In this document: positions 2,734 to 63,993 of the stretch, one piece after another
Layout: every line of letters starts with the position of its first letter
How positions within the stretch are numbered: the stretch's first letter is position 1
DNA from: a virus
Direction: 5' to 3' (one strand)
Virus record (IMG/VR): IMGVR_UViG_3300046049_000005
Span: 1 to 64,000 of that record
Length of the DNA stretch: 64,000 nt
Notes under the pieces: generated by a model
Told to the model about the DNA's origin: nothing
The model's database searches: none
The model's input: only the letters and a program-made list of their open reading frames with translations
Translations under genes and position numbers: made by a program

Positions 2734-2788
2734 CTCGATAAGGGGGGCGGACCCTTACCGTGTTAACGTTCAGTGATATACTTATCCC
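2734..2788 (+). repeat. shared intergenic module (copy 1 of 3)
   Basis: CTCGATAAGGGGGGCGGACCCTTACCGTGTTAACGTTCAGTGATATACTTATCCC. About 80% identical to 22672-22726 and to the reverse complement of 22787-22842. The last 18 nt are identical to the latter. Confidence 0.85.
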
Positions 2789-2830
2789 TCCTATACTAAC
2801 CGTTCAGGTCCAACTTTTGGTCCTAACTAT

Positions 2831-2948
2831 ACGGTACGTACAGTTAACGGTACGTACCATTAATGGTATGTACAAAGAGTCACCACCCTTAGAGGGTACC
2901 ACAAAGGGAGTACCACCGTAGAGTGTTATACTATTATAATAATATTAC
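2831..2948. promoter_or_regulatory. iteron-like 16-nt repeats plus an AT-rich stretch (candidate origin or regulatory hub)
   Basis: Three tandem 16-mers (ACGGTACGTACAGTTA, ACGGTACGTACCATTA, ATGGTATGTACAAAGA) at 2831-2878, including the 10-nt palindrome GGTACGTACC. GTACCAC(C) repeats at 2881-2915. AT-rich GTTATACTATTATAATAATATTACA at 2924-2948. Confidence 0.4.
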
Positions 2949-3289
2949 AGCAGCAGGGAGTAAGCACACACGCGCGAGGCTCGCTTCGCTCCGCGACTCG
3001 CTTCGCTCGTCGCTTACCGCGACCGCTCCGCGAAGGGACCACCACCTTATCGAGATGGAACACAGGGGGGAACCCTTTGAAGGAATAAACACAGAGGGGG
3101 TTTCCCGAGGAGAATTTTTCCACCAGACTTACCCCGGAATCTATCCCAGTTAGCGGCAAATATTGTCGGAGCCGAAACCCAATTTTCAGTCTGTGAGAGT
3201 CGAAAAATCTATGTCTCTCAGTAATCCCTATTCTCCGATTTTGCCGATACAGACTCTCTATCGGCAGAAATCAGCAGCGCAGCGGGAAG

Positions 3290-4396
3290 CGATAGATATA
3301 AGTACAACCGGGTTGAATTGTATGATAGGTCGGCGCAGGTACGCGGGACATCTCCGGGCACACACGCGGTGTGTTGTGCCTCGGAGGTTCCCCCTCACCC
3401 CCGCTCGCGTAATTAAGTGGGGTCGAGGCGGCCTTTAAGGGCCTTCGGCCCTTGCACGATACCCCTCGAAGAGTTCCTTCGGGAAATGGTAGCCCTTGAC
3501 AGGGCTTGAAATAAGTGGGGCGGTTACAATGCACTCCCCGTTACGGGGAGACGTGTCAGTAGCCGTTGAATATCTAAAAGCGACGTTGGGGGCGTTCCCC
3601 CCTGAAGCCACGTTCGCTAAGTTCATCCCAAAACCCTTCGTGTTTAGTAAGCTTGGTCGCGGTCTTCGGAACAACGCGAACCGAAGCCTTCGGGCTTTGG
3701 GGATGTGGCGTTCCCCGGACACCAATCTTGGCCCTTTGGGTGAAGGACGTTATGACGGAAGTTCTCCCGAACGAACCCTCGGAAGGTGCGAAAGCAGAAG
3801 CGAGGCCGGGAAATAAACCATGTTTGAACGTCTAAGGCCATTGCGGGAGATGCACTTCGGCAGAAGTGAGTACCCCATTAGGGACCCCCCACTTCGGTAC
3901 CTGAAACCTCACGGTGAATGGGACGAAGTGGTCAGGGAACCGCCAGCTTTGGCTTCACGCCGAAGCGGTAGGAAACTCCAGCGTTGGAGTGGACCCGAAG
4001 CGGCGTTTCAGGGAGTTCGGACCCTTTGGCTCCTTGATAGCCCACGAAGGCCGACCGACCCAAGAGGGTCACGATGATACCGTTACGGAGCCAAAATTGC
4101 CACGGAAAACCGGACGTTGAAGCTTTCGGGTAAGGCATCGAGAGATGTTCCGTCGAAGGTGGAGTTACGGGTAATGTCCGAGGGACCGTTGGAGTCCTCC
4201 TTAAACGGAGTAAGCCAACTTACATTTAATCGGACTAAGACAACTGGCGCAACGCAACCTATGAATTGACGAGAGTTCCTCGTCAGTTCAATCCGCGCTT
4301 CAAAGCGAACGGGAGCAACGAAGAGGCCTTCGGCCTCGGTTGTTACGGCGATGATGTAACGGAACTGACAAAGCCAGGAGATAGCGGCGTCGGTTA
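3290..4396 (+). ncRNA. candidate large structured non-coding RNA (class unknown)
   Basis: About 1.1 kb with no acidic ORF; the six-frame ORFs are Arg/Pro/Gly-rich. Dense stable hairpins, many capped by CTTCGG or GAAA: 3437-3453, 3474-3485, 3491-3506, 3534-3550, 3588-3601, 3684-3697, 3777-3805, 3853-3868, 3975-3990, 4268-4284, 4323-4337. Long-range pairings 3889-3895/3925-3931 and 4025-4033/4087-4095. Strand and ends are inferred. Confidence 0.5.
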
Positions 4397-4430
4397 GGAC
4401 CGCAGAGAAATTTATAAAAATCTGCGGTCC
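4397..4430 (+). promoter_or_regulatory. 10-bp inverted repeat enclosing a TATA-like box
   Basis: GGACCGCAGA-gaaatttataaaaa-TCTGCGGTCC. The TTTATA lies in the loop, about 90 nt upstream of the ATG at 4503. This looks like a promoter with an operator-like symmetry. Confidence 0.45.
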
Positions 4431-4502
4431 CCGACCCCGACCCCTTCGGGAGCGGTAAGGGGAGTGACGTTGCTCTACTTAGTGAGCAACACCCCAACTG
4501 CA

Positions 4503-5549
4503 ATGGCTATCGACTTCGCAACTCCGACCGCCGAACGTAGTAACGACAGCAACAGCAACGACGACGGTAGCGAGGCGTCTTTCGACGCGAATGAGTTGGC
4601 GGAGCTTTACATCGAAGCTTCGGAGTACGCCGCAACGCTCGCTGAAATGCGAGAGGCCAACGACATCGGGTGGCCTTCGATGGAGAGTGACCCTTCGATG
4701 GAGCAGTATTCGGACCTTCGGAGTCGTCACGAAGACAGCCACATCGCAAAGCGCCTCACCGTTTTCGCGGTTTGCGCGAAGGGCGAGCTTGGTGAGGAGC
4801 AGAACCACGTTAACGACCATTCCATCTCCGATTACGAAGAGTCGTATCCGGAGCTTCCCAGAACCACCTGGAGTGGTCTAAACGACGACGAGAAGGAGAT
4901 GCTTCGTGACGAAGGCATCGACCTCGAAGAGCTTGGCTTCGATGACGACTTCGATGGGCCGAAGCTTCTCGAAGTCGATGGCGAGCGACTGCCCCTCGGT
5001 CTTGAAGAGGGCGATGTGGAAAAGGCGGAGCGCATCTTCGGTAAGCTTCCCACCGAGCCTTCCGCCGCTACCGAAGATGGCTTCCGCGAGTCTTCCGACC
5101 CCGCCGTTTTCGGTGACGCCGATTCCAGCGAGGAAAGCACCGATAAGGTGGTGGATGATGACAGCGAAGACGACGCCGAGGCTGTCGAAGACAGCGAGGC
5201 GGAGGATGAGCCGGAGCTGGACCTTGCCGAGAATCCCGCCGCCGTTACCGAGGCCAACGCTCTGTACGTTCGAAGCGCCGTGACTGACATCACTTCGAAG
5301 CGTACCCTTCAGCGGATGAAGCGGGTCGAAGAGACGAACGACAACCGGAGCAGCGTTATCGGTCGCATCGAAGAGCGGCTTAACGCTTCGGATGTTGGCA
5401 ACGCCGCAGATACCGTTGACGGTGACAGCGACAGCGACAACAGCGACGACCGCAGCCTTAACGAGACTGAGATGAATCTCGCCACCACCCTTATCGAGAA
5501 CGACATCGTTGATAACCTCGATGAGGCCAAGGCGGAAATTCTCGGCTAA
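4503..5549 (+). CDS. hypothetical highly acidic protein
   Basis: Long D/E-rich ORF. The ORF track starts at a GTG at 4464; the first ATG (MAIDFATP) is at 4503. C-terminal LNETEMNLATTLIENDIV parallels the C-terminus of 694..1404. Confidence 0.75.
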   Translation: MAIDFATPTAERSNDSNSNDDGSEASFDANELAELYIEASEYAATLAEMREANDIGWPSMESDPSMEQYSDLRSRHEDSHIAKRLTVFAVCAKGELGEEQNHVNDHSISDYEESYPELPRTTWSGLNDDEKEMLRDEGIDLEELGFDDDFDGPKLLEVDGERLPLGLEEGDVEKAERIFGKLPTEPSAATEDGFRESSDPAVFGDADSSEESTDKVVDDDSEDDAEAVEDSEAEDEPELDLAENPAAVTEANALYVRSAVTDITSKRTLQRMKRVEETNDNRSSVIGRIEERLNASDVGNAADTVDGDSDSDNSDDRSLNETEMNLATTLIENDIVDNLDEAKAEILG

Positions 5550-6635: not shown

Positions 6636-6742
6636 GTTATCGACGCTATCGACGGCGACTTCGCCGCAAGGGGTTGCGGTGCGGAGGGAGTCGAGAGGGA
6701 ACCACCACCTTATCGGTTCGGAACATCGGAGGTAGATAATCC

Positions 6743-7152: not shown

Positions 7153-7647
7153 ATGACACGAAACGACGACGGATTCAACGTAGTCGAAGAGATGCCCCCT
7201 TCGGAGTGGGCGAACTATCGCTTCGATGCCTTCGGTGAGTACATCCACCTCGTTCCCGACCCCGAAGCAGGCGAGCTTCGGTGCTACCGTTCGATAAGCG
7301 AGCCGGCAAAGGAGAGCGAGCGAATCAAGACGACCATCGAGAGGGTGAAGTTCACCTTCAACTGGGAGAGAGAAGAAGATAAGCTGAATTACTTCTATCT
7401 CACCGCCCAGAAGGCCGAGTCGTTCCTGACCTTTGTTGACCTCCTTAGCAGGGGTCGAGAGAGTTCGGTCGGCTTCTCGTGGTGGGAAGAAAGTGGGATG
7501 AAAATGATGGAAAGCGAGCGAAGCGGAGTCGAAACGTTGAACCTTCGCTTCACGAAGCCGAACGGAGTCGAGCGACGGATGCAAATTACCTCGGCTTGGC
7601 AGTGTCCGGTTCACAAGATGGCTGGCATCGAAGGTGAGGGATTTTAA
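7153..7647 (+). CDS. hypothetical protein
   Basis: The first ATG (MTRNDDGF...) is chosen over the upstream alternative start at 7048, whose N-terminus covers the structured leader. The 19 nt around the ATG are identical to those at 8093. Confidence 0.65.
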   Translation: MTRNDDGFNVVEEMPPSEWANYRFDAFGEYIHLVPDPEAGELRCYRSISEPAKESERIKTTIERVKFTFNWEREEDKLNYFYLTAQKAESFLTFVDLLSRGRESSVGFSWWEESGMKMMESERSGVETLNLRFTKPNGVERRMQITSAWQCPVHKMAGIEGEGF

Positions 7648-8087
7648 TGGAAGACTCAATTCCCGAAGAGCGAATCATTGAGGCGTACAGGGCGGCCCTT
7701 CGGTACGGCCCGGAGCCGTTTGATAATGAACCGAGGGCGAAGCACGTGACGACTTCGAAGATGTTCGATTTCTTGATGATGATGAAAGATTCGGACGTAT
7801 TCACCAGTAGTGCTTACCACAAAGCAGGACAGGTCGGTGTAGATGTTTGCTGTGTGGATTGGATGCAGGAGATAGCCGAAGAAACTGGCGACCTTCAAGA
7901 GTTCATCGAATCCCTGCTCGATGGGTATGGTGAAGGCCGCGAAGTCTGGTACGTCTATGAGACAAATGCGGGCGACGAAAAGGCCGGACCCTTCTCGAAT
8001 AAGGAAAACGCAGTTCGGAGTTCTGGAATGTTTCAGGCCGATAAGGGGGAGAAGCATCATATCGTGAAGCGATACGAAGACGAGTGA
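7647..8087 (+). CDS. hypothetical acidic protein
   Basis: 146-aa ORF whose start overlaps the previous stop. Confidence 0.7.
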   Translation: MEDSIPEERIIEAYRAALRYGPEPFDNEPRAKHVTTSKMFDFLMMMKDSDVFTSSAYHKAGQVGVDVCCVDWMQEIAEETGDLQEFIESLLDGYGEGREVWYVYETNAGDEKAGPFSNKENAVRSSGMFQADKGEKHHIVKRYEDE

Positions 8088-8627: not shown

Positions 8628-8795
8628 ATGAGCGAAGAAAGCAACAGCGACGACGGCGGCGAGGCATCTCCACCCCTTATCGAGGCAGAACCTCGCGGAG
8701 CTACCGATGAAGAAGTCCAAAAATCGGTGGAGAACGCCGAGGAGATGGAGTCCAAGAACACCTTTCGGACTTGGCTTCAGTGGTTAAGGAATTAA
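8628..8795 (+). CDS. small acidic protein (55 aa)
   Basis: MSEESNSDDGGEASPPLIEAEPRG... Fills the gap in the gene array. Below the ORF-track cut-off. Confidence 0.45.
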   Translation: MSEESNSDDGGEASPPLIEAEPRGATDEEVQKSVENAEEMESKNTFRTWLQWLRN

Positions 8796-9111: not shown

Positions 9112-11934
9112 ATGGCTTCGCAAGAACTTCCGACAATCGAGGATAGTACCGATAACGGCGCTGATGTGAAAAGCGCCGAAGAGAAGTGGCGTGACGTTAG
9201 CGTCATCGACAATACGGGCAACGCTACGGTTCGAGAGTTCGATGCCGCGAGTGACGACCACCCCCTCGTTCAGTACATGGGGTCGAAGCATCTGAAGACG
9301 GACATTCAGGGTGGCGGCGAGTTCGTCAGCGAAGAGATTTACGAGGGCGATTATGCCTTCGTTCGGGAGTGGCTTCAGAACCAGGAGACGGCTTGCATAC
9401 GGCGATGCAAGATGATAGTCGAACTTAGCGACGAGCATCCCGATGGTTGGCTCACAATGACGATGTGGGTCGATTCCAATACCGGAGATACCGTTCTCGG
9501 TCCCGACGAGAACCAAGCGGTTCTTGCCGAATACGACGACGTTTCCGCTGCTGACATTCGGAAAACAGAGATTCCGAGGCCCATCGATGACGTGATGGAG
9601 GCCGCAAAGTCCCTCGGATACGACCCCACTATTGAGTGGGACGTGTATCTTGACGAGCGTAAGATAGTCACCGAAGATAACGGCATCGGCATGACTCCCG
9701 AGGAGTTCGTGGAGGGCTTCAAGTCCCCTTTTAGTTCAGGTTCGGGTGTTGACGGTGAAACCGGAGGTAACTTCGGTATCGGCAGCAACTCGGTCGAGAA
9801 GGTCCACGGTGCCGAAGGCTCGGTCTGTGTGACGACTCTTTCTGCCCGTCCCGGTGACTGGGAAGGCTTCACGGGGTACTCTTACAGGGGTGGTGTCACC
9901 GCTGTCGATGGCGAGAAGCGCGAGGAACCCGGCACCTTTTTCGAGATTCCCGTTTGCGATGACTTCGACCTCGATAATCTCCAAGAGCAAATCGAGACGT
10001 ATACCGAGATGCTTCGGGTCCCCGTCAAATACGCTGAACACAACGCTGGGGTTCAGCCCGTTGACGAGGAATATGAATCTACACGATTCATCGATGAACA
10101 CGACAACCCACCGATAGTCATCGACCGACCCGGCGAGTTCACCCTTGTTGCCGGTCCCGACGTTTACGATGACAGTTTCAGGTCCGACGATGATAATACG
10201 TATCTGGTTTCGATGCCGATTGACCGCAACACGTCGGCCCGAATCAGCACCTTCTGGAATATTGTGATTCAGATTCACGACGAGCAGGGCCGAATTGTCA
10301 GCGGTCCGAATCGTGGCCGATACCACAACAACGGTTCGGTCTACCTCACCGGTGAGAACATCGAGAAGGTGGACGACTTCCAGCCCGACGACGTTGCTTT
10401 GCCTGTCCCAACGGGGGACCGTGACCGTCTCGCAAGCAACTCCGAATCCAAGGAGTTCTTCTATTACATTCAGGATGTAGTCAAGGAGCGAGAGATTTCT
10501 AAGGCCGCTAAGATAGCCAAGCGTATGAAGCACGCCGACCACGCCGCAGATGTCATAAAGGGCAATAGCGGCAAGTGGCGGCTCTTCACGAAGATGATTG
10601 ACTATCACGGTTCACGCCGTGTTACTGATTGCAAACAAAATTTCCGCGATTTCATCAAGGACCAGGACACCTTCCCTGACTTCAGCAGGGAAAAGATAGA
10701 CGAGATGTACGAGCTGTTTCGGTCGATTGAGGTATGTCACAAAGGCCCCCGCCGTTCCAATAAGAAGAGCGAACGACGACAGGCCACTCTTGGCGACCTC
10801 TTCGCTAAGGCGGACCCAGATACGGTCTACATGGCGGCCTCGACCGGCGGTAAGTTCACTGAACGCTTCCGTGTTGCCGACAAAACACACGAAGAATATG
10901 CCGTTGTAGTCGTTGATGGTGCAAGGCGCTATGACGAATACGGTGAAGCGTTCGGATTCGAGGTTCTGAAGGACGTTCCCCTCACCCGAGATGAAGACCA
11001 CGACTACGATATTCCGAATCAAATTCACAAGAGAAATAGCCAGAAGCGTCAGAGTAGCACCAGTAACGAGAAGCTGAAGCTGCGTACCGGTTACGATAGC
11101 TCCGCAATCGACCTTCGGTTGAGCATTGACAGAGTTCAGGACCTCTTAGAGAGTGGCGGAGGTTTCGACGGCCATTCAAAGTTGGTGCTGTTCCCTCGGG
11201 GCGGTGACAGAGAGAACATCAGCGACCACTACGACGTAGCAGACCACGCCGCGATTGCTTCGGTGTCGGTTAGCGAGTACGAACAGTTGGCCGACTACGA
11301 TAACGTGATGACCTTTGATGAGTTCGAAGAGTGGTCCCGCACCGCCCTTATCGCTACCGAAGATGGAGCGATGACCCCCGAAGAACTCGTCAATGATGAC
11401 CGAATGGTCGTTCTCGCCTACCGCACATGCCCCGAAGGTGGGACGGTAGTGAAGCTTTTATCTGACAGACACGAGAGGCTTCGGGAGTTCTACGCTGAAG
11501 ATGTCCGCGACCAGTTGGACTGGGCCGCCCGTCTCGATGGCTACGACGGCGGCTACGGCGGCGACGACGTGGGTAACGTTCCCGACGACGAGAAGGATGA
11601 CACCCTCTTTGCCGTTGCCTGTGAAACCGTCCTAAATCGAGCAGAGTGGGCGTTCTCGGAGCTTCGCTTCAACAGTAGGGATGTCCTCGGACTCAAACTT
11701 GAGGGCGGTACATACGGCTACAAGACGCCGTGTGAATGGATTTCGCTTGACGGGGATAAGGAAACCTATCAACTGAAGGTAGACACCCCGAAGTGGGATA
11801 ACGACAGCGAAGTCTACGACATCTTCCCTCGTAGTCGTCAAAGCACTACTGGACAGGTCTATCTCGGCCTTCATGACCGAGGAATAGACCCAACTGAGGT
11901 CGATGATGTTCGTGACGAAATAGCACAGGATTAA
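9112..11934 (+). CDS. Hsp90/HtpG-like GHKL-family ATPase domain protein (940 aa)
   Basis: N-box-like FVREWLQNQETACIRR, G1 box EDNGIGMTPEEF and G2 box GGNFGIGSNS appear in the order and spacing typical of the Bergerat ATP-binding fold. The remaining ~700 aa have no motif I recognise. Confidence 0.7.
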   Translation: MASQELPTIEDSTDNGADVKSAEEKWRDVSVIDNTGNATVREFDAASDDHPLVQYMGSKHLKTDIQGGGEFVSEEIYEGDYAFVREWLQNQETACIRRCKMIVELSDEHPDGWLTMTMWVDSNTGDTVLGPDENQAVLAEYDDVSAADIRKTEIPRPIDDVMEAAKSLGYDPTIEWDVYLDERKIVTEDNGIGMTPEEFVEGFKSPFSSGSGVDGETGGNFGIGSNSVEKVHGAEGSVCVTTLSARPGDWEGFTGYSYRGGVTAVDGEKREEPGTFFEIPVCDDFDLDNLQEQIETYTEMLRVPVKYAEHNAGVQPVDEEYESTRFIDEHDNPPIVIDRPGEFTLVAGPDVYDDSFRSDDDNTYLVSMPIDRNTSARISTFWNIVIQIHDEQGRIVSGPNRGRYHNNGSVYLTGENIEKVDDFQPDDVALPVPTGDRDRLASNSESKEFFYYIQDVVKEREISKAAKIAKRMKHADHAADVIKGNSGKWRLFTKMIDYHGSRRVTDCKQNFRDFIKDQDTFPDFSREKIDEMYELFRSIEVCHKGPRRSNKKSERRQATLGDLFAKADPDTVYMAASTGGKFTERFRVADKTHEEYAVVVVDGARRYDEYGEAFGFEVLKDVPLTRDEDHDYDIPNQIHKRNSQKRQSSTSNEKLKLRTGYDSSAIDLRLSIDRVQDLLESGGGFDGHSKLVLFPRGGDRENISDHYDVADHAAIASVSVSEYEQLADYDNVMTFDEFEEWSRTALIATEDGAMTPEELVNDDRMVVLAYRTCPEGGTVVKLLSDRHERLREFYAEDVRDQLDWAARLDGYDGGYGGDDVGNVPDDEKDDTLFAVACETVLNRAEWAFSELRFNSRDVLGLKLEGGTYGYKTPCEWISLDGDKETYQLKVDTPKWDNDSEVYDIFPRSRQSTTGQVYLGLHDRGIDPTEVDDVRDEIAQD

Positions 11935-12272: not shown

Positions 12273-12965
12273 ATGAGGGTACTTGAGTCAAACGCAACGA
12301 ACTTTCTGGTTCGTAACGAAGACGGAAGTATCACCACCAAAACCCGCGACTCAGACCTGAATAAGTTGTTGTTCGGTCACAATCTCTACGGCCTTATCGA
12401 GGAAGGCTCTTCGGTGTGGACCAATTCGGGTTCCGAATCTGAACCGAAGGTTACGCTCATTCCTGATGATGAAGCCAAATCCTATACGTTACGTCTCGAT
12501 AATGCCCCGGACCTGACCCTCGGCCCGCACTACAAGACCGACCTTATCGAGGCTCTGGCCGCGGTCTACGAACAGCACAACGCCGAAAGTGTCGCTCCGC
12601 TCCTTTCGCTTTACGACGATGTTCGGGAGAACATGATTCGCAAAGAGGTACTGGAACCATTCTCCAGGGTCTTCAGCGATAAGGTGGAGGTGAGGGACGA
12701 CGGGTGGTTCATCAACGGTCATCTTCTCCTTACCTTCGAAGGCGATTTTTTCCATCCCAACACTACAAGCCGAGAGCGAAGCGGTGGAAATGTCACTTCG
12801 TATCAGAGTCAGATGCAAGCGTATTCGGTGGACATCTCGGAAGGCGCCGCAGATATGAGCCGCGACGTAACGCTCAACGGTGAGAGCTTTCGCCTTACTG
12901 ACACGGAGATGGAGTTCCTGGGGAAGCTGGTGTGGTCTATCGAGAATACCCCCGACCGTAGATGA
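12273..12965 (+). CDS. hypothetical protein
   Basis: 230-aa ORF with acidic composition. Confidence 0.7.
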   Translation: MRVLESNATNFLVRNEDGSITTKTRDSDLNKLLFGHNLYGLIEEGSSVWTNSGSESEPKVTLIPDDEAKSYTLRLDNAPDLTLGPHYKTDLIEALAAVYEQHNAESVAPLLSLYDDVRENMIRKEVLEPFSRVFSDKVEVRDDGWFINGHLLLTFEGDFFHPNTTSRERSGGNVTSYQSQMQAYSVDISEGAADMSRDVTLNGESFRLTDTEMEFLGKLVWSIENTPDRR

Positions 12966-44262: not shown

Positions 44263-44265
44263 CGT

Positions 44266-44274: not shown

Positions 44275-44298
44275 CTTGTCGGGACTCTTTCTTTGTAG

Positions 44299-44410: not shown

Positions 44411-44545
44411 AGTATAACTTTATAATTATAGTTATACTGTTTACTCTGTACTGTTTACTCTACAACGTTAACTCTGCTATGTTAACACCGATAAGGTGGT
44501 GGGACAATGAACTACTGTTAGGTCTGTTGACCATGTTGTAGAGTT

Positions 44546-53788: not shown

Positions 53789-54321
53789 TATTGCGGTGTA
53801 GGGTTGGTCTGCGTAATCTTAGAGATGATAACATTGCGTTCGTTGCTCTCGGACTCGTCGCGCCCCGTCGAAACCAAATCAAGGGTGTATTCGAACATCC
53901 ATTGCTGGTTCTCGGGGTCCCAACCCGCCTGTTGACCAAGCTCCCCCTTCTTGAGGTAACACTCCATACCGCCGAAGGGAGTGAGAGGAGAAAGAAGGTC
54001 TACACTTCCGGGGTAGTCCAGCAACGCCTGAAAGATGTTGATTTCGCCCTGGAGAATAACGCCAGTGGCGTGGAACTCTCTATTCTTAATAGACTTTATC
54101 GAAACTGACTCCGACTCGCATTTTCCGCCATACCGCTTCAGTTCTTTTTCCTTCATCTGAGTGAAGCGGTCGGGGTAGAACTTTGGACTAAAGGACCACG
54201 CCTTATCGGTGGGGGATATTTCGAATCCAAGCTCCTTGACGGGACTCGCGTAAGTCTGCTCTATTTCGGATTGGGGTCCATCTGACGATGAAAACCCACC
54301 AGCAAAGTCAGCAGTAACCAT
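53788..54321 (-). CDS. tail/baseplate assembly protein
   Basis: 177 aa, directly downstream of the tape-measure gene. Positional call. Confidence 0.45.
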   Translation of the reverse strand: MVTADFAGGFSSSDGPQSEIEQTYASPVKELGFEISPTDKAWSFSPKFYPDRFTQMKEKELKRYGGKCESESVSIKSIKNREFHATGVILQGEINIFQALLDYPGSVDLLSPLTPFGGMECYLKKGELGQQAGWDPENQQWMFEYTLDLVSTGRDESESNERNVIISKITQTNPTPQ

Positions 54322-56408
54322 TAGTTCTCTGTGTCAACGCCAGGGAGGTCGGTTGCCTTTCGTTTCTCCATCTGTCTTTGGTTGATGTCTTCAACTTGCT
54401 TTCTCGTCGCGTAGTCGTCACCCGAACCAGCGTCGTAGTTGAACTGCCGATTGTCGTTGTAGACCATACCCCCTGAACCGCCGGGGCGACCTGGGCCTCT
54501 GCCGTCGCTCACGTCGGGTCCTTTTTGACCAACATCCATCGCGTTGAACGCCGCCAAACCAGTTCCAACAACTGCCAAGCCAATTCCCGTAGCGGAAAGC
54601 AAACCAACAACAGTCATAAGGACTTTTTGAAGGGTTGTCAAGCTGGCTATGGATGTCCACACGTGGCTGTTGAGCAACGTGAAGGCCATCTTGATGCCGT
54701 TTATCACCGAACCGCTACCAATCAGTAGGAGCCGTCCGATGACAAAGTTTAGCATTTTCCCCATCGCCATCAGCGAGAGCGTGAGACGTGTCGCCATCGA
54801 CCCTAACAGAGCGCCGACAACGAGGACCGATAACACGGACCCAACGAGACGGTTGCTGAAGAGGTTGCTAAGATAGGCGACTACACCGATAAGGGGTTCG
54901 GCTGCTGCGACTATCCGCGACAGCAGAAGCGAGAAGTTGAACAGAATCTTCAGCAGGTCCTTTACTGCCTTTCCGAGATTAATCAGTAGCTCCTGGTTCT
55001 CGAACGTGACTCTGAAGAGGAACGAGAAGAAATCAAGGATATTCGTTGAAGCGATTTCGGTAAACCGAACCGCCAACTGACCTATCTCTTTCTCCTTCCC
55101 GACAATCCTGTCGATGGCAGTTTCAATGTCGTTCGATAGAATCGCGCCAACTGCCATCAGGGTATCTTCGAACCTCGTGAACCCCTTCATCGAGTCAGCA
55201 ATCCCGCTGAGGCCGCTCGGAATCTTATCGAAGATTCTGGACTGAACGGGTGCGAAGTCCTGAGCGGTTCCTTGGAAAACCTCAAAGAGTTCTTCCTTGA
55301 GGTCGCTTACCTCTTCTTTGGCTCGCTCCATCGAAGAGGCCATGTCTTCGCCGTGGCCGACGAGTCCAAGGCCGATAATGGCGGCTCCGGCCCCGGCGAC
55401 AGCACCCATTGCGGATGCAACACCCAGCAGTTGCGCTCCAAGAACGACTAATAGCGGAATAAAGGCCGAAACGATAGCGCGAATCTGAGTGTAGCTTGGC
55501 TTGAGCCGACCCAAGCTCTTCACGACCTTTCGCTGAGAAACGTCCAGCTCCTCGAACGCATCGGTGGCAGACTCGATATTGTTTATACGCTTGTAGAGGT
55601 CTGTATCAGCGAGCGTTTTCCGCTTTGAGTGTATCGGTTCGCTCGGTCCGGAACGGGCATTTCGCTCTATATCAAGCTGTTCTGGAGTCGAAAGTTGCCT
55701 CCTCGCTTCTTGGTTTAGGTCCCTAAAGGACCCATCTTCCATCATCGAGAAGTCGGGATTGATTTTATCCATCGAGAGAAGAAGATTCTTCTTTCGCTGG
55801 AATTGCTCAAAGCTCCCGAACTCAGGGGGTGTAGCCTTCTCTTTCAGACGTTCGCCGCGGGCGTTGGCGTGCAGACCGACGCCGAACTCTTCACTAAAAA
55901 TGCGCTCTCGAAGCGGAGTGTTCTTTTCTTCTTCCGTAAGGTGAATGTCCTGCCCTTTGGCGAAGTCGGCAAAGTCGTGCTTGAGAAGATTTAAATCCTC
56001 GTTCGATAGAACATCATCAAAAATATCGCCAAACCGACTCCTTGCAATAGCCTTCTTACTGCGGGTGTCTCTGTCACCATCCCTCCCCTTATCGGGAGGG
56101 TCGTCGCCAGTGCTGTCCCCGTCGCCAGTTTCTCCGTCAGGCGTATCGTGGACGACGTTTAGCTCTGCATCATCGATGGCCTCAGCGGCGTTTTCCATCC
56201 GACGAGCCGCATTGAGAGAATCTATATCGAGGTCGTCAAGAGCCTCACCAAGCTCGTCAATGATACCAGTAAGCTCACCAATGTCTTCGTCAATGTCTAT
56301 CTCTATATCGTCGGCAACTCGCTCCAGACCTTTGAGCGAAGCGGCAATGGCTCCGATTTTGCCTTGCGCTTCAGCCGCGTCAAGGTCAATCTCAATATCA
56401 ACAGACAT
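54321..56408 (-). CDS. tail tape-measure protein
   Basis: 695 aa. Acidic coiled N-terminus, central hydrophobic Gly/Ala-rich helices (AMGAVAGAGAAIIGLGLVG; LLSATGIGLAVVGTGLAAF). Position after the chaperone genes. Confidence 0.75.
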   Translation of the reverse strand: MSVDIEIDLDAAEAQGKIGAIAASLKGLERVADDIEIDIDEDIGELTGIIDELGEALDDLDIDSLNAARRMENAAEAIDDAELNVVHDTPDGETGDGDSTGDDPPDKGRDGDRDTRSKKAIARSRFGDIFDDVLSNEDLNLLKHDFADFAKGQDIHLTEEEKNTPLRERIFSEEFGVGLHANARGERLKEKATPPEFGSFEQFQRKKNLLLSMDKINPDFSMMEDGSFRDLNQEARRQLSTPEQLDIERNARSGPSEPIHSKRKTLADTDLYKRINNIESATDAFEELDVSQRKVVKSLGRLKPSYTQIRAIVSAFIPLLVVLGAQLLGVASAMGAVAGAGAAIIGLGLVGHGEDMASSMERAKEEVSDLKEELFEVFQGTAQDFAPVQSRIFDKIPSGLSGIADSMKGFTRFEDTLMAVGAILSNDIETAIDRIVGKEKEIGQLAVRFTEIASTNILDFFSFLFRVTFENQELLINLGKAVKDLLKILFNFSLLLSRIVAAAEPLIGVVAYLSNLFSNRLVGSVLSVLVVGALLGSMATRLTLSLMAMGKMLNFVIGRLLLIGSGSVINGIKMAFTLLNSHVWTSIASLTTLQKVLMTVVGLLSATGIGLAVVGTGLAAFNAMDVGQKGPDVSDGRGPGRPGGSGGMVYNDNRQFNYDAGSGDDYATRKQVEDINQRQMEKRKATDLPGVDTEN

Positions 56409-57179: not shown

Positions 57180-57238
57180 GATTAGTTTGTTTCGGTGATA
57201 TTAAGATAGAAGGGAAATCCTCGATAAGGCGGGGAGAC

Positions 57239-60220: not shown

Positions 60221-60597
60221 CAGTCAGATTGGTGGAGGACAGGCTCTCCGAAGAACTCGACGTGGGTGTCGTAGTTGGTGTGAGCCTTTACCTCATACAC
60301 TTCGCCATCGTATTCGAGGTGGTCGTGAATCTGCGGCGGCTCGGGAAGGTCAGGAGAAACAGGAACGAGAAAAACCGGACGGTCCTGTTCCATATCGCCG
60401 GCTCTTGACTGGAGTTCCGTGTTTCGGTTCGGATAGGTCCGTAACGCAAAGACCGTTCTGTCCGGGTCGCCCTTATCGGGGTGGGACTCGGTTTGATTCC
60501 CGAACTCGTTCTGCTCCGATTCTTCTCGTTCGAGAACGCCCGCTTCCCTACCAAGCCGATAGATTTGCGCCCGAACTTGGCTTTGTGAATAGGTCAT
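60220..60597 (-). CDS. head-tail adaptor/closure protein
   Basis: 125 aa, overlapping its neighbours. Positional call. Confidence 0.45.
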   Translation of the reverse strand: MTYSQSQVRAQIYRLGREAGVLEREESEQNEFGNQTESHPDKGDPDRTVFALRTYPNRNTELQSRAGDMEQDRPVFLVPVSPDLPEPPQIHDHLEYDGEVYEVKAHTNYDTHVEFFGEPVLHQSD

Positions 60598-61052
60598 AGC
60601 TCGGCGTCTCCGCTGGAGCTACCGCCGATGGTGAAGTCGTCTTCTTCGTATTCCCGTGCGGGACGACGCGGCGCGGCCGAAGAGAACAATCCACTTTCCC
60701 CAATAGACCGAACAGCACGCTCCGCGTTCCGATACCAGATAGTAACAGAATCATTGTCTTTCGACAATAGCGTGTTCTGGTCTATCGCTCCCATCTGGAT
60801 AGCCTGGGAATCAAATTCCCCGGTCTGAACCTTGGTAAAAAGACACGTCCACCAGAACAGCGCCTCTTCTCTATCCGGCTTATCGGTGTCAAACCAATCG
60901 TAATCGACTTCAGGAGGAAGCGACTTTCGAACTCGAATGTGACGCTTCGCGTTTCGATAAGCTGCATCGAGGCCGTCAGGAGAAAGAGCTTGCTCGTGCG
61001 TATAGCCAGTCATCTGGCGCACGTCTTTCTTCAGTTGAGTTTCAGTTGACAT
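60594..61052 (-). CDS. head-tail connector protein
   Basis: 152 aa, directly downstream of the capsid gene. Positional call. Confidence 0.45.
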   Translation of the reverse strand: MSTETQLKKDVRQMTGYTHEQALSPDGLDAAYRNAKRHIRVRKSLPPEVDYDWFDTDKPDREEALFWWTCLFTKVQTGEFDSQAIQMGAIDQNTLLSKDNDSVTIWYRNAERAVRSIGESGLFSSAAPRRPAREYEEDDFTIGGSSSGDAEL

Positions 61053-61080: not shown

Positions 61081-62034
61081 TTACTTGAGGTTGTCAGCCG
61101 TGACCTTGGTGGCCGCGAGGGGGTCAACCATGCGGCAGCCGTAGTCGGCGGTCGCGTTCGCACCGAGAAGGTCGCCCGGCGAGCGCACGACAGCCCCGTT
61201 GGGCCGCGTGACCTGAACCGGACGGTCTTCGAGGAACTTGATGGGCGAGTCGTTCTGGACCTGCGAGAGGTAGAACTTGTCGCCGGCCATGTACGGAGAC
61301 TCGATAAGAGCCACACCGTCGATAACGATGTCGAGGTCCTGAACGTCGCTCGACCGCATACCGTTCGCCATCGGGATGTCGTACTGCGCGTCCCACGAAA
61401 TCTCGTCGCGCATCGCCCGCTTGAACGAGTTCGAGACGAGTGCCGCGAACGGCCCTTCCATCCCGTGATGAGTCAGTTGGCGCTTCGCCTCCTCGATGTG
61501 TTCGTGCGGATAGTGCGCCTCGCTGTCATCGAAGAGGTCCGAAGTCGAACCAAAGACGTGGGAGTGGTTGTTCGTAAACTCATACTCCCCGAAGTCGCGG
61601 ATGTCGTACCACGCGCCAGAGCCGTCGATGATGCCGTTCTCCAGCGTCCGGTAGACCAGTTGCTCTTCGGTGTTCTTCGCGCCCGTCAGGAGACGCTGAA
61701 GCTTGTCTACGATGCGGCTGGAGTCGGTCCGGCGAACGTACTTCTGCGTCATCCCGAGGGACTTCGAGAAGGTGTCCGACCGAATCGTGACCCAGCGGTC
61801 ATCGTAGTCTTCCTCGCGCATCGTCCGGGGCTGCTCACCCTCAGCGAGCTTGTCCCAGTAGATGTCGTCAGTCCGAGGCTCCTGGTAGAACGTCTGCTCG
61901 TTAACCGTCTCAGCAAACATCTCCGTGAAGGGACGCTCCGCCTCGTTGTAGCGGTCGAAGAGGGTACGCGCCATCTCCAGCAGGTCCTCGATGCTCTTGC
62001 CGTCAGCCGTGTGAAGCTCGTGTCGTCGTGCCAT
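61081..62034 (-). CDS. major capsid protein (presumed HK97 fold)
   Basis: 317 aa with high codon bias and GC. Preceded by scaffold-like and decoration-like genes (lambda Nu3-D-E order). No direct motif evidence. Confidence 0.6.
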   Translation of the reverse strand: MARRHELHTADGKSIEDLLEMARTLFDRYNEAERPFTEMFAETVNEQTFYQEPRTDDIYWDKLAEGEQPRTMREEDYDDRWVTIRSDTFSKSLGMTQKYVRRTDSSRIVDKLQRLLTGAKNTEEQLVYRTLENGIIDGSGAWYDIRDFGEYEFTNNHSHVFGSTSDLFDDSEAHYPHEHIEEAKRQLTHHGMEGPFAALVSNSFKRAMRDEISWDAQYDIPMANGMRSSDVQDLDIVIDGVALIESPYMAGDKFYLSQVQNDSPIKFLEDRPVQVTRPNGAVVRSPGDLLGANATADYGCRMVDPLAATKVTADNLK

Positions 62035-62072
62035 TGTAAATTAAAGAGTTAAAGTAAGTAGCTACGAGTCTT

Positions 62073-62633
62073 TTAGGCCAGAACCTCGTAGTCAGCGTCC
62101 ACCTCAAGGAAGAGGCGGTCCTTCTCGGAGTTGTTCGGGTCCAGCGCGTTCGCAATCTCGCTGGTAGCCAGACCGAGAACCTGAACCGCCTCGCCGGACC
62201 CCGAAGGTGGGGTCTGAGTGAAGCCGCCACCAACGTCAAGATAGACAGGCTCGCCAGCCTCGAAGTCCGTGTCGCCGTCGTCGTTCACAAGCTCGATGCC
62301 GGAACGGATGACGGTACAGCGGTCGCCAGCCTTGGTGCGGTTCTCCTCGTAAATCTGTGCCTCCACGTCGTCCCACGGATGGGGCGTGTTGACGCCGCCA
62401 TACTGACCGTCAGGCAGAACCTCACGGTTGAACATGACGCCGACCGCGTGAACCGGACCATCGCCAGCCTCGTTCGCGTCAGCGGCGGCGTCGGCCTTCA
62501 CCAGCTTCGGCTCGCTACCGGAGGTGTCAACGCCGACAGGAACGCCCTGATGCTCGCCGGTGAGCTGAACGTTCTCGAAGCCGGTACGGTTGAGCGGCAT
62601 CTCCTCGCCAGTCGCAATGTTGAAATCAGTCAT
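62073..62633 (-). CDS. head decoration-like protein (DUF2190-like)
   Basis: 186 aa, Gly/Val/Asp-rich. Occupies the position of lambda gpD. Confidence 0.4.
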   Translation of the reverse strand: MTDFNIATGEEMPLNRTGFENVQLTGEHQGVPVGVDTSGSEPKLVKADAAADANEAGDGPVHAVGVMFNREVLPDGQYGGVNTPHPWDDVEAQIYEENRTKAGDRCTVIRSGIELVNDDGDTDFEAGEPVYLDVGGGFTQTPPSGSGEAVQVLGLATSEIANALDPNNSEKDRLFLEVDADYEVLA

Positions 62634-62647
62634 TTTTGTTTAAAAGT

Positions 62648-63106
62648 TTAGAGGTTGAGGCCCTGCACGTCACCGAGCGCATCCTCAACGAAGTCCTCGG
62701 TCTCGTCGCCGTTATCCTTGGGCGAACGCTTACCGAAGTCGTCAAAGGTACCCTCACCCTCCTCGTCGGCCTCGGAGCCGTCCTCGGCCTCCTCGGAGTC
62801 CTCGGAAACGAAGTCGCGCCACTCCTGAAGCTCCGAGAACTTCGCGTCCTCCAGAGCATCCTCGCTCAGGGGAACCTCATCGAAGGTTTCAGCCTCAGTA
62901 ATCTCACCGATAAGGGCGGTGCGGGCATCCTCGAAGTCTTCGATGACAGTCTCGTCAACGTCATCGTATTCCTCAGCCAGCCGTTCGAACTCGGCAACGT
63001 TGGACTCTTGTGCTTCTTGGAACTCGTCAACGAGCTTCCGAAGCTGTTCCTCGGAAAGGTCGCTGACGCTTCCATCGATAGTAACCTTGGTAATGTCAAA
63101 ATCCAT
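62648..63106 (-). CDS. scaffolding protein
   Basis: 152 aa, extremely acidic, predicted helical (EEQLRKLVDEFQEAQESNVAEFERLAEEYDD). Lies upstream of the capsid gene. Confidence 0.55.
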   Translation of the reverse strand: MDFDITKVTIDGSVSDLSEEQLRKLVDEFQEAQESNVAEFERLAEEYDDVDETVIEDFEDARTALIGEITEAETFDEVPLSEDALEDAKFSELQEWRDFVSEDSEEAEDGSEADEEGEGTFDDFGKRSPKDNGDETEDFVEDALGDVQGLNL

Positions 63107-63108
63107 TG

Positions 63109-63993
63109 TTAAAAGTTGAAAGTTGTCTTCTCTACCGAAAATTCCGCCGCCGAGTTCTCGCCGGACTTATCGGTGTCGTCCGCCGGGTCATCGAACTCGG
63201 GACTAAACTCGATAACCGAAACGTGTGCTGCGCTCTCCTCGGGGTTCGGGTCGCCATCCGGTAAACTGCTAAAGGGATTCCTCGCCCAGTTTAGTAGGCT
63301 AATAGCCCACTTCGAAGGACACGTCCCCTTTCCGCCTTCCTTCGGAGACTCGGGCTTGTTTTTGTCACTGTTCATCCGCTCGATGAAGCTGATAGTGCGC
63401 TTTGCGTCTTCGATTTCATCCGAACCCCACTCAGACTTGCTCGTCTGAAGCAGGTCCAGATTGCGCTTCCGAACATCGCTCGGATTTTGTGACGCTTCGT
63501 TCGCACACGGATGGTCGCCCCATCGCTTCAGCTCCGAAGCAGTCATATTGACTGAGTTCTCCCAGTCAGAATACACCTCGTCAAGCTCGTCATCGTCACT
63601 CTCAAAGGTCATTTCGAGGTGGGCGTCGGACTCGCTCATGTTGTCCTGCGGTCCGTTCCACGAACTCAGACTGGACTGCGAGGCGGCAATCATTTGGCCC
63701 GTGAAGCCGTCATCAAATTCCTCAAGCTTATAGACCGGCTCACCGTCAGAACCGCTGATAGTGTTCCCGTCAACGGTGATGGAGTCCTTGGTGCGGCTCC
63801 GCACCTTTCCGTAGACGTTTCCGCCGGACCAGCTACGCTGAACCCAATCTCCAGTAGAGAACTTGTAACTCTGGCTCTCGAAGTCGGAGCCGACTTCTTC
63901 GAGGGCTTGAGCGAAGGCGGTGTTGACGCCGCCGTCATCGTATCCACCGGGGAAGTTCACCGTAGAGAACTCGCGGAACTTGCCGTCGCGCAT
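63109..63993 (-). CDS. head morphogenesis protein (function unknown), possibly 5'-incomplete
   Basis: ORF of at least 294 aa reaching within 7 nt of the window edge. Contains a small GDWVQRSWSGGNVYGKV beta-barrel-like motif. Confidence 0.5.
   Translation of the reverse strand: MRDGKFREFSTVNFPGGYDDGGVNTAFAQALEEVGSDFESQSYKFSTGDWVQRSWSGGNVYGKVRSRTKDSITVDGNTISGSDGEPVYKLEEFDDGFTGQMIAASQSSLSSWNGPQDNMSESDAHLEMTFESDDDELDEVYSDWENSVNMTASELKRWGDHPCANEASQNPSDVRKRNLDLLQTSKSEWGSDEIEDAKRTISFIERMNSDKNKPESPKEGGKGTCPSKWAISLLNWARNPFSSLPDGDPNPEESAAHVSVIEFSPEFDDPADDTDKSGENSAAEFSVEKTTFNF

Follow-up and report, generated by a model that had tools for sequence, protein, structure and literature searches.

The stretch of DNA analysed here, referred to as the window, comprises positions 1 to 64,000 of the IMG/VR virus record IMGVR_UViG_3300046049_000005; it has a G+C content of 52.9% and represents most of a roughly 73-kb genome. 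Its genes run rightward to ~44.1 kb and leftward from ~45 kb, and they encode nucleases of the ERCC4, PD-(D/E)XK, HNH and LAGLIDADG types, an integrase, an HTH-Mre11-like exonuclease, a PAS protein, a dCTP deaminase, an RNA ligase, a baseplate J protein and a tail sheath. Its tail sheath shares 53% identity with the sheaths of HRTV-7 and HSTV-2 and 49% with the HF2 sheath, and its gene order is the same as theirs; the window therefore derives from a distant Hafunaviridae-like haloarchaeal myovirus. Distributed through its genes and its non-coding DNA is a non-palindromic 8-base word, CGATAAGG, whose reverse complement is CCTTATCG. The abundance, variation and possible function of this word are our subject here.

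The 7-base core of the word occurs on the + strand as 39 copies of CTTATCG and 34 of CGATAAG, 73 in all from 2736 to 63166, where base composition predicts 7.3 and a second-order Markov model 9.5. These exact counts agree with those of a first-pass annotation of the sequence, which had reported 73 copies (39 + 34) against about 7. The 8-mer is more extreme still, with 52 copies observed and 2.2 expected (~24-fold), and the word is the top over-represented one at k=6, 7 and 8. Many copies share a longer context. The 14-mer CGATAAGGTGGTGG is found exactly at 5141 and 44489 on the + strand and at 3039, 6702 and 51310 on the - strand, with one-mismatch copies at 22827, 31795 and 36270, all as previously listed, to which we add 12677 and 22674; these 10 copies compare with an expectation of 0.01. 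The extended form of the word can be written C-[CT or AC]-CGATAAGG-N-G-G, and the flank preference within the window as C[CT/AC]CGATAAGG[T/C/G]G.

Sixty-five of the 73 copies lie inside open reading frames (ORFs). The in-gene statistics given below refer to 59 of them, which are spread over 42 genes (the annotation had said more than 40); the other 14 comprise six inside further ORFs and eight that are truly non-coding, including each of the seven that had been assigned to intergenic modules (2736, 3046, 6709, 22674, 22834, 44489 and 57222). Only 0.95 copies would be expected in the 8.35 kb of truly non-coding DNA, and the density there, 9.6 per 10 kb, is on a par with the 11.7 of coding sequence; coding and non-coding copies together number 73 in 60 kb, about one per kb. 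Codon-preserving shuffles, proposed earlier as a control, leave most of the excess unexplained: the 59 in-gene copies of the 7-mer compare with 11.6 ± 3.1 after synonymous shuffling and 9.4 ± 2.9 after shuffling of codon order, and the 42 in-gene copies of the 8-mer with 4.9 and 3.3, respectively. The reported lack of polarity relative to transcription is borne out by 34 sense and 25 antisense copies, and by the occupancy of those positions at which the encoded protein is compatible with the 8-mer (42 of 101 overall, 24 of 51 in sense and 18 of 50 in antisense orientation).

The copies within genes had been described as falling in diverse frames, but 83% of them share one physical codon register, with C-GAT-AAG (Asp-Lys) in 31 of the 34 sense copies and CTT-ATC-G (Leu-Ile) in 18 of the 25 antisense copies. 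In the x-Asp-Lys-G frame, the 8-mer occupies 23 of 34 protein-compatible positions. Asp-Lys shows no enrichment as a dipeptide (76 observed, 73 expected), and this finding, together with the synonymous and codon-order shuffles, rules out amino-acid or codon usage as the cause, as the annotation had argued for amino-acid and dipeptide usage. The word is written instead, wherever the proteins permit it, by synonymous choice and by conservative amino-acid changes (Val to Ile). GAT-AAG is used 38 times (~16 expected) and GAC-AAG 14 times (~33 expected), and among 40 Leu-Ile pairs, CTT-ATC accounts for 20 and CTC-ATC for 2. A C..G context surrounds 23 of 37 GAT-AAG pairs (~6 expected) and 14 of 20 CTT-ATC pairs (~4 expected), and five copies (ACC-TTA-TCG) use the rare TTA codon. 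A local context rule that places C before GAT was rejected, the flanks being tied to the core; a hairpin or interrupted palindrome (ACCT-CGATA-AGGT, CACC-GATAA-GGTG) was not significant when flanks were permuted within frame classes.

Related words in the window behave in several ways. The near-cognates CGACAAGG and CGATGAGG are depleted (three copies of CGATGAGG), and the majority of one-mismatch neighbours are not, some being enriched. A second, weaker word, CGATAACG/CGTTATCG, has 24 copies in genes and 6.3 in shuffles, encoding Asp-Asn and Val-Ile in the same register, and the word of a sister lineage, CGAGAAGG, is 2.5-fold enriched.

The window is at the same time purged of palindromes: GATC occurs 0 times (572 expected), CTAG 4 (228), CTCGAG 0 (79), GAATTC 0 (63), GACGTC 0 (58), GAGCTC 0 (57) and CGATCG 0 (71), with ACGCGT, CCATGG, CCCGGG, CGTACG, CAGCTG, CTGCAG, AGTACT and ACATGT also at zero, and 100 six-mers are absent. 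This agrees with published results for the HF1 group, for which only avoidance had been described and non-palindromic motifs were explicitly set aside (PMC7230728; PMC8651126). A target of restriction or BREX would be expected to be depleted, and the word is 24-fold enriched. When shuffles are barred from making any 6-mer that is absent from the genome, the expected number of in-gene 8-mers is 7.2 ± 2.0, against 42 observed, and the same constraint leaves a 4-8-fold excess in the window's own clade. In HRTV-7 and HF2, the excess falls to ~2-2.6-fold (34 copies of CGATGAGG against 15.9, and 70 of CATCGAGG against 27.3). Purging of palindromes and GATC does explain most of these weaker signals, as well as the 5-6-fold 'CGAT' words of the Haloferax plasmid pHV4, which look like by-products of GATC depletion. 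It is ruled out as the cause in the window and its clade by the constrained shuffles and by enrichment in GATC-tolerant relatives. The view of the earlier annotation that this is a recognition word at the DNA level therefore stands, since the excess persists against all three kinds of shuffle (synonymous, codon-order and avoidance-constrained), is equally dense in non-coding DNA and extends into coherent flanks. Avoidance in these viruses may extend beyond palindromes: GATAA occurs 0 times in HRTV-7, 107 times in HF2 and 186 times in the window. The window has 80 instances of the codon pair GAA-GAG (GAAGAG), and HRTV-7 and HF2 have none. GATAA and GAAGAG thus have the look of non-palindromic targets whose avoidance varies from lineage to lineage.

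We compared the window with 30 related loci fetched via the tail sheath and primase, to which the labels L126 and the like refer. Across these loci the dominant word tracks phylogeny, and relatives that keep GATC are no exception. CGATAAGG is dominant in the window, L127, L135, L140, L141 and L166; CGAGAAGG in L130/L143 and L160; CGATGAGG in L144, HSTV-2, L162, L149 and HRTV-7; CATTGAGG in L137 and L150; CGGGAAGC in L163; and CATCGAGG in the HF1/HF2 group, including its GATC-keeping members. The variants are one-base and lineage-specific, and when the family of words is read on the other strand it resolves into one half that is constant and one that varies, CCTY-NNYG. In the 72-kb genome L131+L142, CGATAAGG and CGATGAGG are both enriched in both modules, which therefore carry a relaxed form, CGATRAGG. 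The word variants differ outside the 8-mer too, because the flanks in L141 (IMG/VR 3300019927_000017) depart from the flank preference of the window: the same core is found there within AGCGATAAGGTC (AGCGATAA, 8 copies; GATAAGGT, 9; ATAAGGTC, 8). In size-matched 30-kb samples, the word of the window is present in 18-23 copies (z 10-16), and the top words of three host replicons and of HVTV-1, phiCh1 and HSTV-1 reach 6-11 copies and change between chunks, with no dominant word. A scan of IMG/VR with the 14-mer returned single chance hits only. Two further IMG/VR contigs with a 55% identical primase (L146 and L147; 3300005927_000004 and 3300025333_000002) are dominated by CAGCACAG/ACAGCACA, with 14 copies against 0.4-0.5 expected; these words overlap themselves and may represent a tandem or dispersed repeat rather than a word in codon register. 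Similarly, 8-mers of the GGTAAGTAC type in positions 1-30000 of phiCh1 (6 against 0.2 in shuffles) are probably a local repeat family.

Conservation of individual sites depends on the distance over which it is viewed. In L140, a close relative (82.8% identity), 5 of 5 L140 sites are retained, compared with a background 7-mer retention of 0.36 (P=0.006), and seven further sites of the window face near-cognates in L140. Three of three window-only sites that can be polarised by an outgroup are gains. Among same-word relatives at 70-77% protein identity, 2 of ~14 sites are in common, and family-wide positional conservation is mostly absent at this distance. The expectation that sites would be conserved among relatives thus holds at close range and fails at greater distance. 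We conclude from the L140 retention, the distant turnover and the polarised gains that sites are kept over short evolutionary distances, give way to others over long ones and continue to accumulate; since positional conservation is mostly absent, function is independent of particular sites. At a position shared in gene 62648-63106, each virus has its own variant, CTTATCG or CTCATCG, and in the capsid gene, Leu-Val has changed to Leu-Ile independently, each time with the word of the lineage concerned. Conversion of an ancestral CGATGAGG by G-to-A change was ruled out, as orthologous positions seldom hold CGATGAGG.

The arrangement of the copies was evaluated against random occupancy of protein-compatible positions. 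On this null, orientation alternates along the genome more than chance allows, with 50 runs where 38.2 ± 4.0 are expected (P=0.003), and L127 (P=0.02) and L135 (P=0.04) show such alternation as well. Copies on the same strand, about one every 1.7 kb, are spaced more evenly than chance, the coefficients of variation (CV) of their gaps being 0.72 and 0.61 (P=0.024 and 0.0095), and HRTV-7 shows a comparable evenness within each strand (P=0.002 and 0.008). With the strands pooled, the CV is 0.85, which is not significant. Same-strand regularity thus exceeds pooled regularity, and this is moderate evidence that the word acts in one orientation; the pattern accords with strand-specific use without being peculiar to priming. 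The head-to-head pairs 22674/22834 (non-coding) and 26849/27009 (gene 26007-27143) are both exactly 160 bp apart, which may be chance.

Six of the eight non-coding copies form three inverted pairs, whose spacers of 145-322 nt are AT-rich and contain palindromes (Table 1). In the first pair, these are palindromes at 2834-2873 and an AT-rich palindrome at 2924-2949. The second lies between divergent genes, with AT-rich TATA-like boxes 25-35 nt outside each arm, at the genomic position of the promoter-bearing repeat IR1c of HF2. The third sits where the two gene arms converge, and three copies of TACTGTTTACTCTG, two of them in tandem, adjoin its right arm (44435-44526). In the non-coding modules generally, AT-rich TATA-like boxes lie about 17-35 nt downstream of the word. 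An archaeal BRE/TATA box would keep a fixed place about 26 nt upstream of a transcription start and share the orientation of its gene. A suggestion that the word is itself a TTAT-type internal promoter box or TATA box is unsupported and was rejected, because the word has no gene polarity and these separate boxes lie downstream of it.

A candidate for the protein that reads the word is encoded within ORF 29885-31408 (core from ~30188), which has weak matches to a phage primase family and to the PriL C-terminal region. The archaeo-eukaryotic primase (AEP) motifs IFIDLD, SGHKGLH and DVDxSD are conserved across its homologues, and the cysteines of the C-terminal domain are invariant in a five-virus alignment and invariant or nearly so across 29 homologues. 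A sequence search against the PDB gave no match. The AlphaFold2 model (predicted local distance difference test score 87.5), in contrast, is related by Foldseek with probability 1.00 to LigD-Pol, Prim-PolC, RepB', CAPP and PriS. The product of 30188-31408 represents an unannotated family of AEPs; none of its 176 homologues is named or has a Pfam domain. Orthologues are HRTV-7 gene 61 and HF2 HrrHF2_285, and the protein cluster includes a member on a 72.7-kb contig. Monomeric AEP primases of viruses and plasmids are capable of sequence-specific priming through a helix-bundle or PriL-like domain; the site of the NrS-1 primase is 8 nt long, and its inverted repeat is a proposed origin (PMC8718748, PMC10250227).

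Table 1. Copies of the word in the window (as 7-mer, 8-mer or 8-mer with the exact 14-mer), inverted pairs and genes for candidate readers. Coordinates of word copies are those of the 7-base core; (-) after a gene marks leftward genes.
Feature	Position	Strand	Context
Inverted pair 1	2733..3055		arms TCTCGATAAGGGGG 2733-2746 / CCACCTTATCGAGA 3042-3055, 295 nt apart
Inverted pair 2	22651..22863		34-nt arms 22651-22684/22830-22863, 79% complementary, 145 nt apart
Inverted pair 3	44145..44502		opposite arrangement; 18-nt arms 44145-44162/44485-44502, 322 nt apart
AEP primase, virus-encoded, Cys-rich C-terminal helical domain	30188..31408	+	candidate reader
HTH + Mre11/SbcD-like phosphoesterase	31359..32753	+	alternative candidate reader (recombination)
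PD-(D/E)XK (RecB/Cas4-type) nuclease	36230..37225	+	alternative candidate reader (Chi-like)
8-mer	2736..2742	+	non-coding, left arm of pair 1
8-mer, 14-mer	3046..3052	-	non-coding, right arm of pair 1
8-mer, 14-mer	5141..5147	+	gene 4464-5549, sense Asp-Lys
8-mer	5490..5496	-	gene 4464-5549, antisense Leu-Ile
8-mer, 14-mer	6709..6715	-	non-coding, ATG 6743 27 nt downstream
7-mer	7292..7298	+	gene 7048-7647, sense CG-ATA-AG
8-mer	8039..8045	+	gene 7647-8087, sense Asp-Lys
8-mer	8676..8682	-	gene 8628-8795, antisense Leu-Ile
8-mer	11347..11353	-	gene 9112-11934, antisense Leu-Ile
8-mer	12393..12399	-	gene 12273-12965, antisense Leu-Ile
8-mer	12543..12549	-	gene 12273-12965, antisense Leu-Ile
8-mer	12677..12683	+	gene 12273-12965, sense Asp-Lys
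7-mer	13967..13973	-	gene 13007-13987, antisense Leu-Ile
7-mer	16448..16454	+	gene 16122-17426, sense Asp-Lys
8-mer	16487..16493	+	gene 16122-17426, sense Asp-Lys
7-mer	16920..16926	-	gene 16122-17426, antisense Leu-Ile
8-mer	18216..18222	+	gene 18178-18624, sense Asp-Lys
7-mer	19241..19247	-	within ORF 18973-19485, antisense
7-mer	20685..20691	-	integrase gene 20479-21537, antisense Leu-Ser
7-mer	21156..21162	+	integrase gene 20479-21537, sense Asp-Lys
8-mer	22674..22680	+	non-coding, left arm of pair 2
8-mer	22834..22840	-	non-coding, right arm of pair 2
8-mer	24060..24066	-	gene 23667-24251(-), sense Asp-Lys
8-mer	25346..25352	+	gene 25218-25442, sense Asp-Lys
8-mer	25748..25754	-	gene 25451-25789, antisense Leu-Ile
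8-mer	26849..26855	+	gene 26007-27143, sense Asp-Lys; also in L140
8-mer	27009..27015	-	gene 26007-27143, antisense Leu-Ile; also in L140, L166; CTGATCG in GATC-tolerant relatives
8-mer	29195..29201	+	gene 29106-29996, sense Asp-Lys
8-mer	29291..29297	+	gene 29106-29996, sense Asp-Lys
8-mer	29861..29867	+	gene 29106-29996, sense Asp-Lys; also in L140
8-mer	30129..30135	-	long ORF 29885-31408, upstream of primase core; not in L140
7-mer	30733..30739	+	primase gene, sense; gain in window lineage
8-mer	31802..31808	-	gene 31359-32753, antisense Leu(TTA)-Ser; also in L140, L141, L142
8-mer	32330..32336	+	gene 31359-32753, sense Asp-Lys; gain in window lineage
7-mer	32515..32521	-	gene 31359-32753, antisense CT-TAT-CG; gain in window lineage
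7-mer	33248..33254	-	HNH gene 32755-33393, antisense
8-mer	34680..34686	+	gene 34558-34848, sense Asp-Lys
8-mer	34783..34789	-	gene 34558-34848, antisense Leu-Ile; also in L140
7-mer	34922..34928	+	gene 34845-35174, sense Asp-Lys
8-mer	35637..35643	+	gene 35572-35880, sense Asp-Lys
8-mer	36277..36283	-	PD-(D/E)XK gene 36230-37225, antisense Leu(TTA)-Ser
7-mer	37311..37317	+	edge of small ORFs 37113-37486
8-mer	37442..37448	-	gene 37362-37523, antisense Leu-Ser
8-mer	38167..38173	+	dCTP deaminase gene, sense Asp-Lys
8-mer	38506..38512	-	dCTP deaminase gene, antisense Leu-Ser
8-mer	38629..38635	-	ORF 38614-38880, antisense
8-mer	39380..39386	+	PolB gene, sense Asp-Lys
8-mer	39411..39417	-	PolB gene, antisense Leu-Ile
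8-mer	41381..41387	+	PolB gene, sense Asp-Lys
8-mer	42535..42541	+	gene 42266-42898, sense Asp-Lys
8-mer	42743..42749	-	gene 42266-42898, antisense Leu-Ile
7-mer	43201..43207	-	RNA ligase gene, antisense Leu-Ile
7-mer	43413..43419	+	RNA ligase gene, sense Asp-Lys
8-mer	44152..44158	-	non-coding, left arm of pair 3
8-mer, 14-mer	44489..44495	+	non-coding, right arm of pair 3
7-mer	45095..45101	-	gene 44993-45220(-), sense Asp-Lys
7-mer	46414..46420	-	gene 45912-46727(-), sense CG-ATA-AG
8-mer	47911..47917	-	gene 47314-48360(-), sense Asp-Lys
8-mer	50851..50857	+	baseplate J gene (-), antisense Leu-Ile
8-mer, 14-mer	51317..51323	-	baseplate J gene (-), sense Asp-Lys
8-mer	52016..52022	-	gene 51868-52308(-), sense CG-ATA-AG
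8-mer	53383..53389	+	gene 52310-53788(-), antisense Leu-Ile
8-mer	54202..54208	-	gene 53788-54321(-), sense Asp-Lys; CGATGAG there in L131
8-mer	54887..54893	+	gene 54321-56408(-), antisense Leu-Ile
7-mer	55224..55230	-	gene 54321-56408(-), sense Asp-Lys
8-mer	56088..56094	-	gene 54321-56408(-), sense Asp-Lys
8-mer	57222..57228	+	non-coding, 44 nt upstream of ATG of gene 56697-57179(-), 17 nt upstream of TTAATAT box
8-mer	60472..60478	-	gene 60220-60597(-), sense Asp-Lys
7-mer	60879..60885	-	gene 60594-61052(-), sense Asp-Lys; also in L127, L129
7-mer	60955..60961	+	gene 60594-61052(-), antisense CT-TAT-CG
7-mer	61302..61308	+	capsid gene 61081-62034(-), antisense Leu-Ile; Leu-Val in relatives, CTCATCG in L131
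8-mer	62908..62914	+	gene 62648-63106(-), antisense Leu-Ile; CTTATCG in L126/L127/L135/L130, CTCATCG in L131, HRTV-7
7-mer	63166..63172	-	gene 63109-63999(-), sense Asp-Lys

We consider it probable that the word is a selected, oriented, cis-acting DNA word with a lineage-specific reader, a factor that would read it during genome replication or recombination. Tentatively, we suggest that the reader could be the virus's own AEP primase and the word an oriented replication (priming) signal. Preferred priming is the most concrete mechanism on offer, because monomeric AEP primases of viruses and plasmids prime in a sequence-specific manner, that of NrS-1 at an 8-nt site. The dispersed copies would then mark places where primers preferentially start, whichever strand serves as template, and the three inverted pairs with their AT-rich spacers would be candidate origins or start zones. 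If the template reads 5'-CCTY-NNYG-3', copying of CCTY, the half that is constant across the family, would give a primer with a purine start, 5'-RAGG, and the cryptic recognition element would be the variable half. Carried to the family as a whole, this reading holds that haloarchaeal myoviruses write a lineage-specific 8-base word at regular intervals on both strands as an obligatory replication or recombination signal, most concretely as the initiation sites of an AEP-PriL-type primase, and that one-base variants isolate co-infecting lineages, a synthesis that is possible although we regard it as doubtful.

Several results weigh against this explanation. Bins of 8 kb show neither strand skew nor a switch point along the genome, and so no mark of an origin, and ~8.7 kb of the source genome lie outside the window. 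Alternation of orientation is not replicated in L166, L141 or L142, and its Fisher combined P, 0.002 over all loci, is 0.03 without the window. Only four conservative columns of the primase split users of CGATAAGG from users of CGAGAAGG, a number equalled by a control partition; no protein of the replication module tracks the word in a co-variation search for the reader, and a winged-helix protein contradicts the word grouping. The position of the word upstream of TATA-like boxes in the non-coding modules fits a transcription-factor site equally well. To our knowledge, primase sites are mostly 3-5 nt long, and genome-wide enrichment of such sites has not been reported.

The signal might instead be Chi-like, with the word, in single-stranded DNA, switching a viral or host end-resection nuclease from degradation to recombination and so protecting the linear genome and feeding recombination-dependent replication. 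An over-represented, lineage-specific 8-mer whose orientation matters and whose same-strand copies are evenly spaced is in keeping with this proposal, as are the PD-(D/E)XK RecB/Cas4-type nuclease, the Mre11/SbcD-like exonuclease with its HTH and the ERCC4 nuclease that the virus encodes. We nevertheless think it unlikely: these nucleases are stand-alone enzymes, and no RecBCD/AddAB-type helicase-nuclease was found in the window; none of them co-varies with the word; orientations alternate rather than being biased to the genome ends or changing at a switch point; and we know of no Chi in archaea. About as improbable is a site for a protein that binds double-stranded DNA, whether a virus-encoded regulator of transcription or a factor with an architectural or compacting role, for which the non-coding modules would be primary and the in-gene copies would serve genome-wide coating. 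The best-conserved copies do lie in repeated non-coding modules 25-45 nt upstream of AT-rich TATA-like boxes, at the positions of HF2's promoter repeats, and small zinc-finger and HTH proteins, which differ from lineage to lineage, are numerous in the family (PMC8707807). An orientation-blind binder, however, predicts the opposite of what is seen, where copies are regularly spaced within a strand but not when the strands are pooled; a promoter factor gives little reason for 59 in-gene copies that lack polarity; and the HF2 intergenic repeats do not contain HF2's own word. Decidedly unlikely, in our view, is an epigenetic target on the model of Elhai for HIP1, in which a non-palindromic methyltransferase or other modifier would mark the word, biased mismatch repair would regenerate it and variants would follow enzyme specificity. 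One-base variants and a relaxed intermediate are typical of the specificities of Type IIG, Type III and BREX-type methyltransferases; both were found here, the latter as CGATRAGG, and CGACAAGG and CGATGAGG are depleted. Most viruses of the HF1 group, moreover, encode an N6-methylase whose target is not identified (PMC7230728). Yet most one-mismatch neighbours are undepleted or even enriched, no DNA methyltransferase was found among the ~46 proteins scanned of the 64-kb window, and mutational drive predicts neither even same-strand spacing nor alternation.

A host factor might read the word, the virus mimicking a host 'self' signal or exploiting a host replication or repair protein, so that variants would follow host range. 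Hosts do shape motif content, as the purging of GATC, CTAG and many other palindromes attests (PMC7230728), and HRTV-7 is purged of every GATAA. In three haloarchaeal replicons, by contrast, the enrichment of any word is at most 3-fold and none dominates every chunk, the true hosts of the window's clade not being identified, and the same word is used by GATC-purging and GATC-tolerant viruses, which makes this reading very unlikely. It is also highly improbable that the word has no function and merely reflects codon or codon-pair habits combined with heavy motif avoidance. The single register of most in-gene copies would suit such an origin, as would the fall of the HRTV-7 and HF2 words to 2.1-2.6-fold once avoidance is modelled, the 5-6-fold 'CGAT' words of the host plasmid that are attributable to GATC depletion, and site 27009, where the CTGATCG of GATC-tolerant relatives is CTTATCG or CTCATCG in GATC-purging ones. 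Against it stand the excess that outlasts avoidance modelling (42 against 7.2 ± 2.0), its reverse-complement symmetry, its undiminished density in non-coding DNA and its coherent flanks, the rare TTA codon of the ACC-TTA-TCG copies, the enrichment in GATC-keeping relatives, the regular spacing and the retention of sites. Least credible of all is a signal at the RNA level, acting on sense transcripts and long counter-transcripts. Very long transcripts do cover most of the HF2 genome on both strands (PMC8707807), but sense and antisense occupancy are equal in the window, the hairpin that was tested is unsupported, an Rfam scan of the window gave two tRNAs and nothing else, and cutting or binding inside 42 coding regions would bring no obvious benefit.

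We class the word with HIP1, with the dialects of the DNA uptake sequence (DUS) and uptake signal sequence (USS), and with Chi, as a non-palindromic instance in an archaeal virus. We found no earlier description of it in the searchable literature. HIP1 (Highly Iterated Palindrome 1, GCGATCGC) of cyanobacteria is likewise a hyper-abundant octamer found beyond the level set by codon usage, inside genes in favoured frames and between them, with evidence of selection, non-random spacing, replacement by 'alternate HIPs' in some lineages and a function that is still open (PMC5861425, PMC4390886); the octamer of the window is at least 10-fold over-represented and, in the comparison with L140, its sites are kept above background. 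HIP1, however, is palindromic, has cognate methyltransferases, belongs to a cellular genome and is regular over 10-90 kb, whereas the word here is oriented, resides in a 73-kb archaeal virus, has a per-strand spacing of ~1.7 kb and has no such enzyme that was found in the window. The DUS of Neisseriaceae and the USS of Pasteurellaceae, like the word, occur about once per kb, equally on both strands, mostly in genes in permissive frames with some intergenic inverted pairs, and differ between related lineages in 'dialects' of one or two bases (PMC3630211). They act through a competence pilus receptor, with biased uptake and recombination, and the virus has no uptake step; the inverted pairs of the window, 145-322 nt apart, are not terminator hairpins. 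Chi sequences are lineage-specific, over-represented 5-8-mers that act in one orientation on one strand, are made of common codons and are accumulated by some phages, but they are skewed with replication direction, whereas the word is balanced (34 and 39) and alternating, and no RecBCD/AddAB homologue was found.

Primase sites, among them the GTC-based pentamers of T7 gp4, TTTGGTTA of NrS-1, GTG of pRN1 and ATA of Nanoarchaeum PriS-PriL, resemble the word as strand-specific signals on a single-stranded template, and the resemblance to NrS-1 extends to the inverted repeat proposed as its origin, since the window encodes an AEP primase and contains three inverted pairs (PMC8718748, PMC10250227). 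They differ in that no primase site is known to show enrichment throughout a genome, or to combine a length of 8 nt with variants across a family, and the primase of the window shows no visible co-variation. HF2 itself has promoter-bearing intergenic repeats, to which viral regulators may also bind (PMC8707807). The non-coding modules of the window lie at the same positions (for example, between the ERCC4-side and LAGLIDADG-side genes) and next to TATA-like boxes, but there is no sequence similarity, and the HF2 repeats are confined to intergenic DNA, whereas most copies of the word are in ORFs.

If our interpretation is correct, the word would be the first example from any archaeal virus of a replication or recombination signal selected across the whole genome and, should the reader be the primase, the first genome tuned to its primase's template preference. 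Hyper-abundant short words such as Chi, DUS/USS, HIP1 and the FtsK-orienting polar sequences (KOPS) are rare genome-wide signals of how DNA is handled in vivo, and all of the known ones are bacterial. An oriented 8-mer in small archaeal viruses of a culturable family, with natural variants and a relaxed intermediate, should make its function testable. If the copies are priming or recombination sites, they would open a way into the replication of archaeal tailed viruses, which is almost unstudied, and would account for some of the codon usage of these viruses. In metagenomic contigs of haloviruses, the words could also serve to trace lineage, the history of modules and perhaps the host. Motif analyses limited to avoidance overlooked what is the strongest compositional signal in these viruses.

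Other features of the window include a 940-aa GHKL/HSP90-like ATPase (MORC-type HATPase_c_3; 9112-11934), which is present family-wide and is 39% identical to HRTV7_94. The family B DNA polymerase gene (39216-42269) contains an intein with a LAGLIDADG domain at residues ~658-931, and genes for tRNA-Asn (GTT; 24515-24589) and tRNA-Gln (TTG; 25128-25205) lie near the integrase/nuclease region. The ~2.2 kb from 2217 to 4464, in which inverted pair 1 is located, have weak coding potential and many repeats, among them 128-129-nt spaced repeats at 2270-2522, a 48-nt tandem pair at 2569-2664 and an exact 19-nt repeat at 2636 and 2670.

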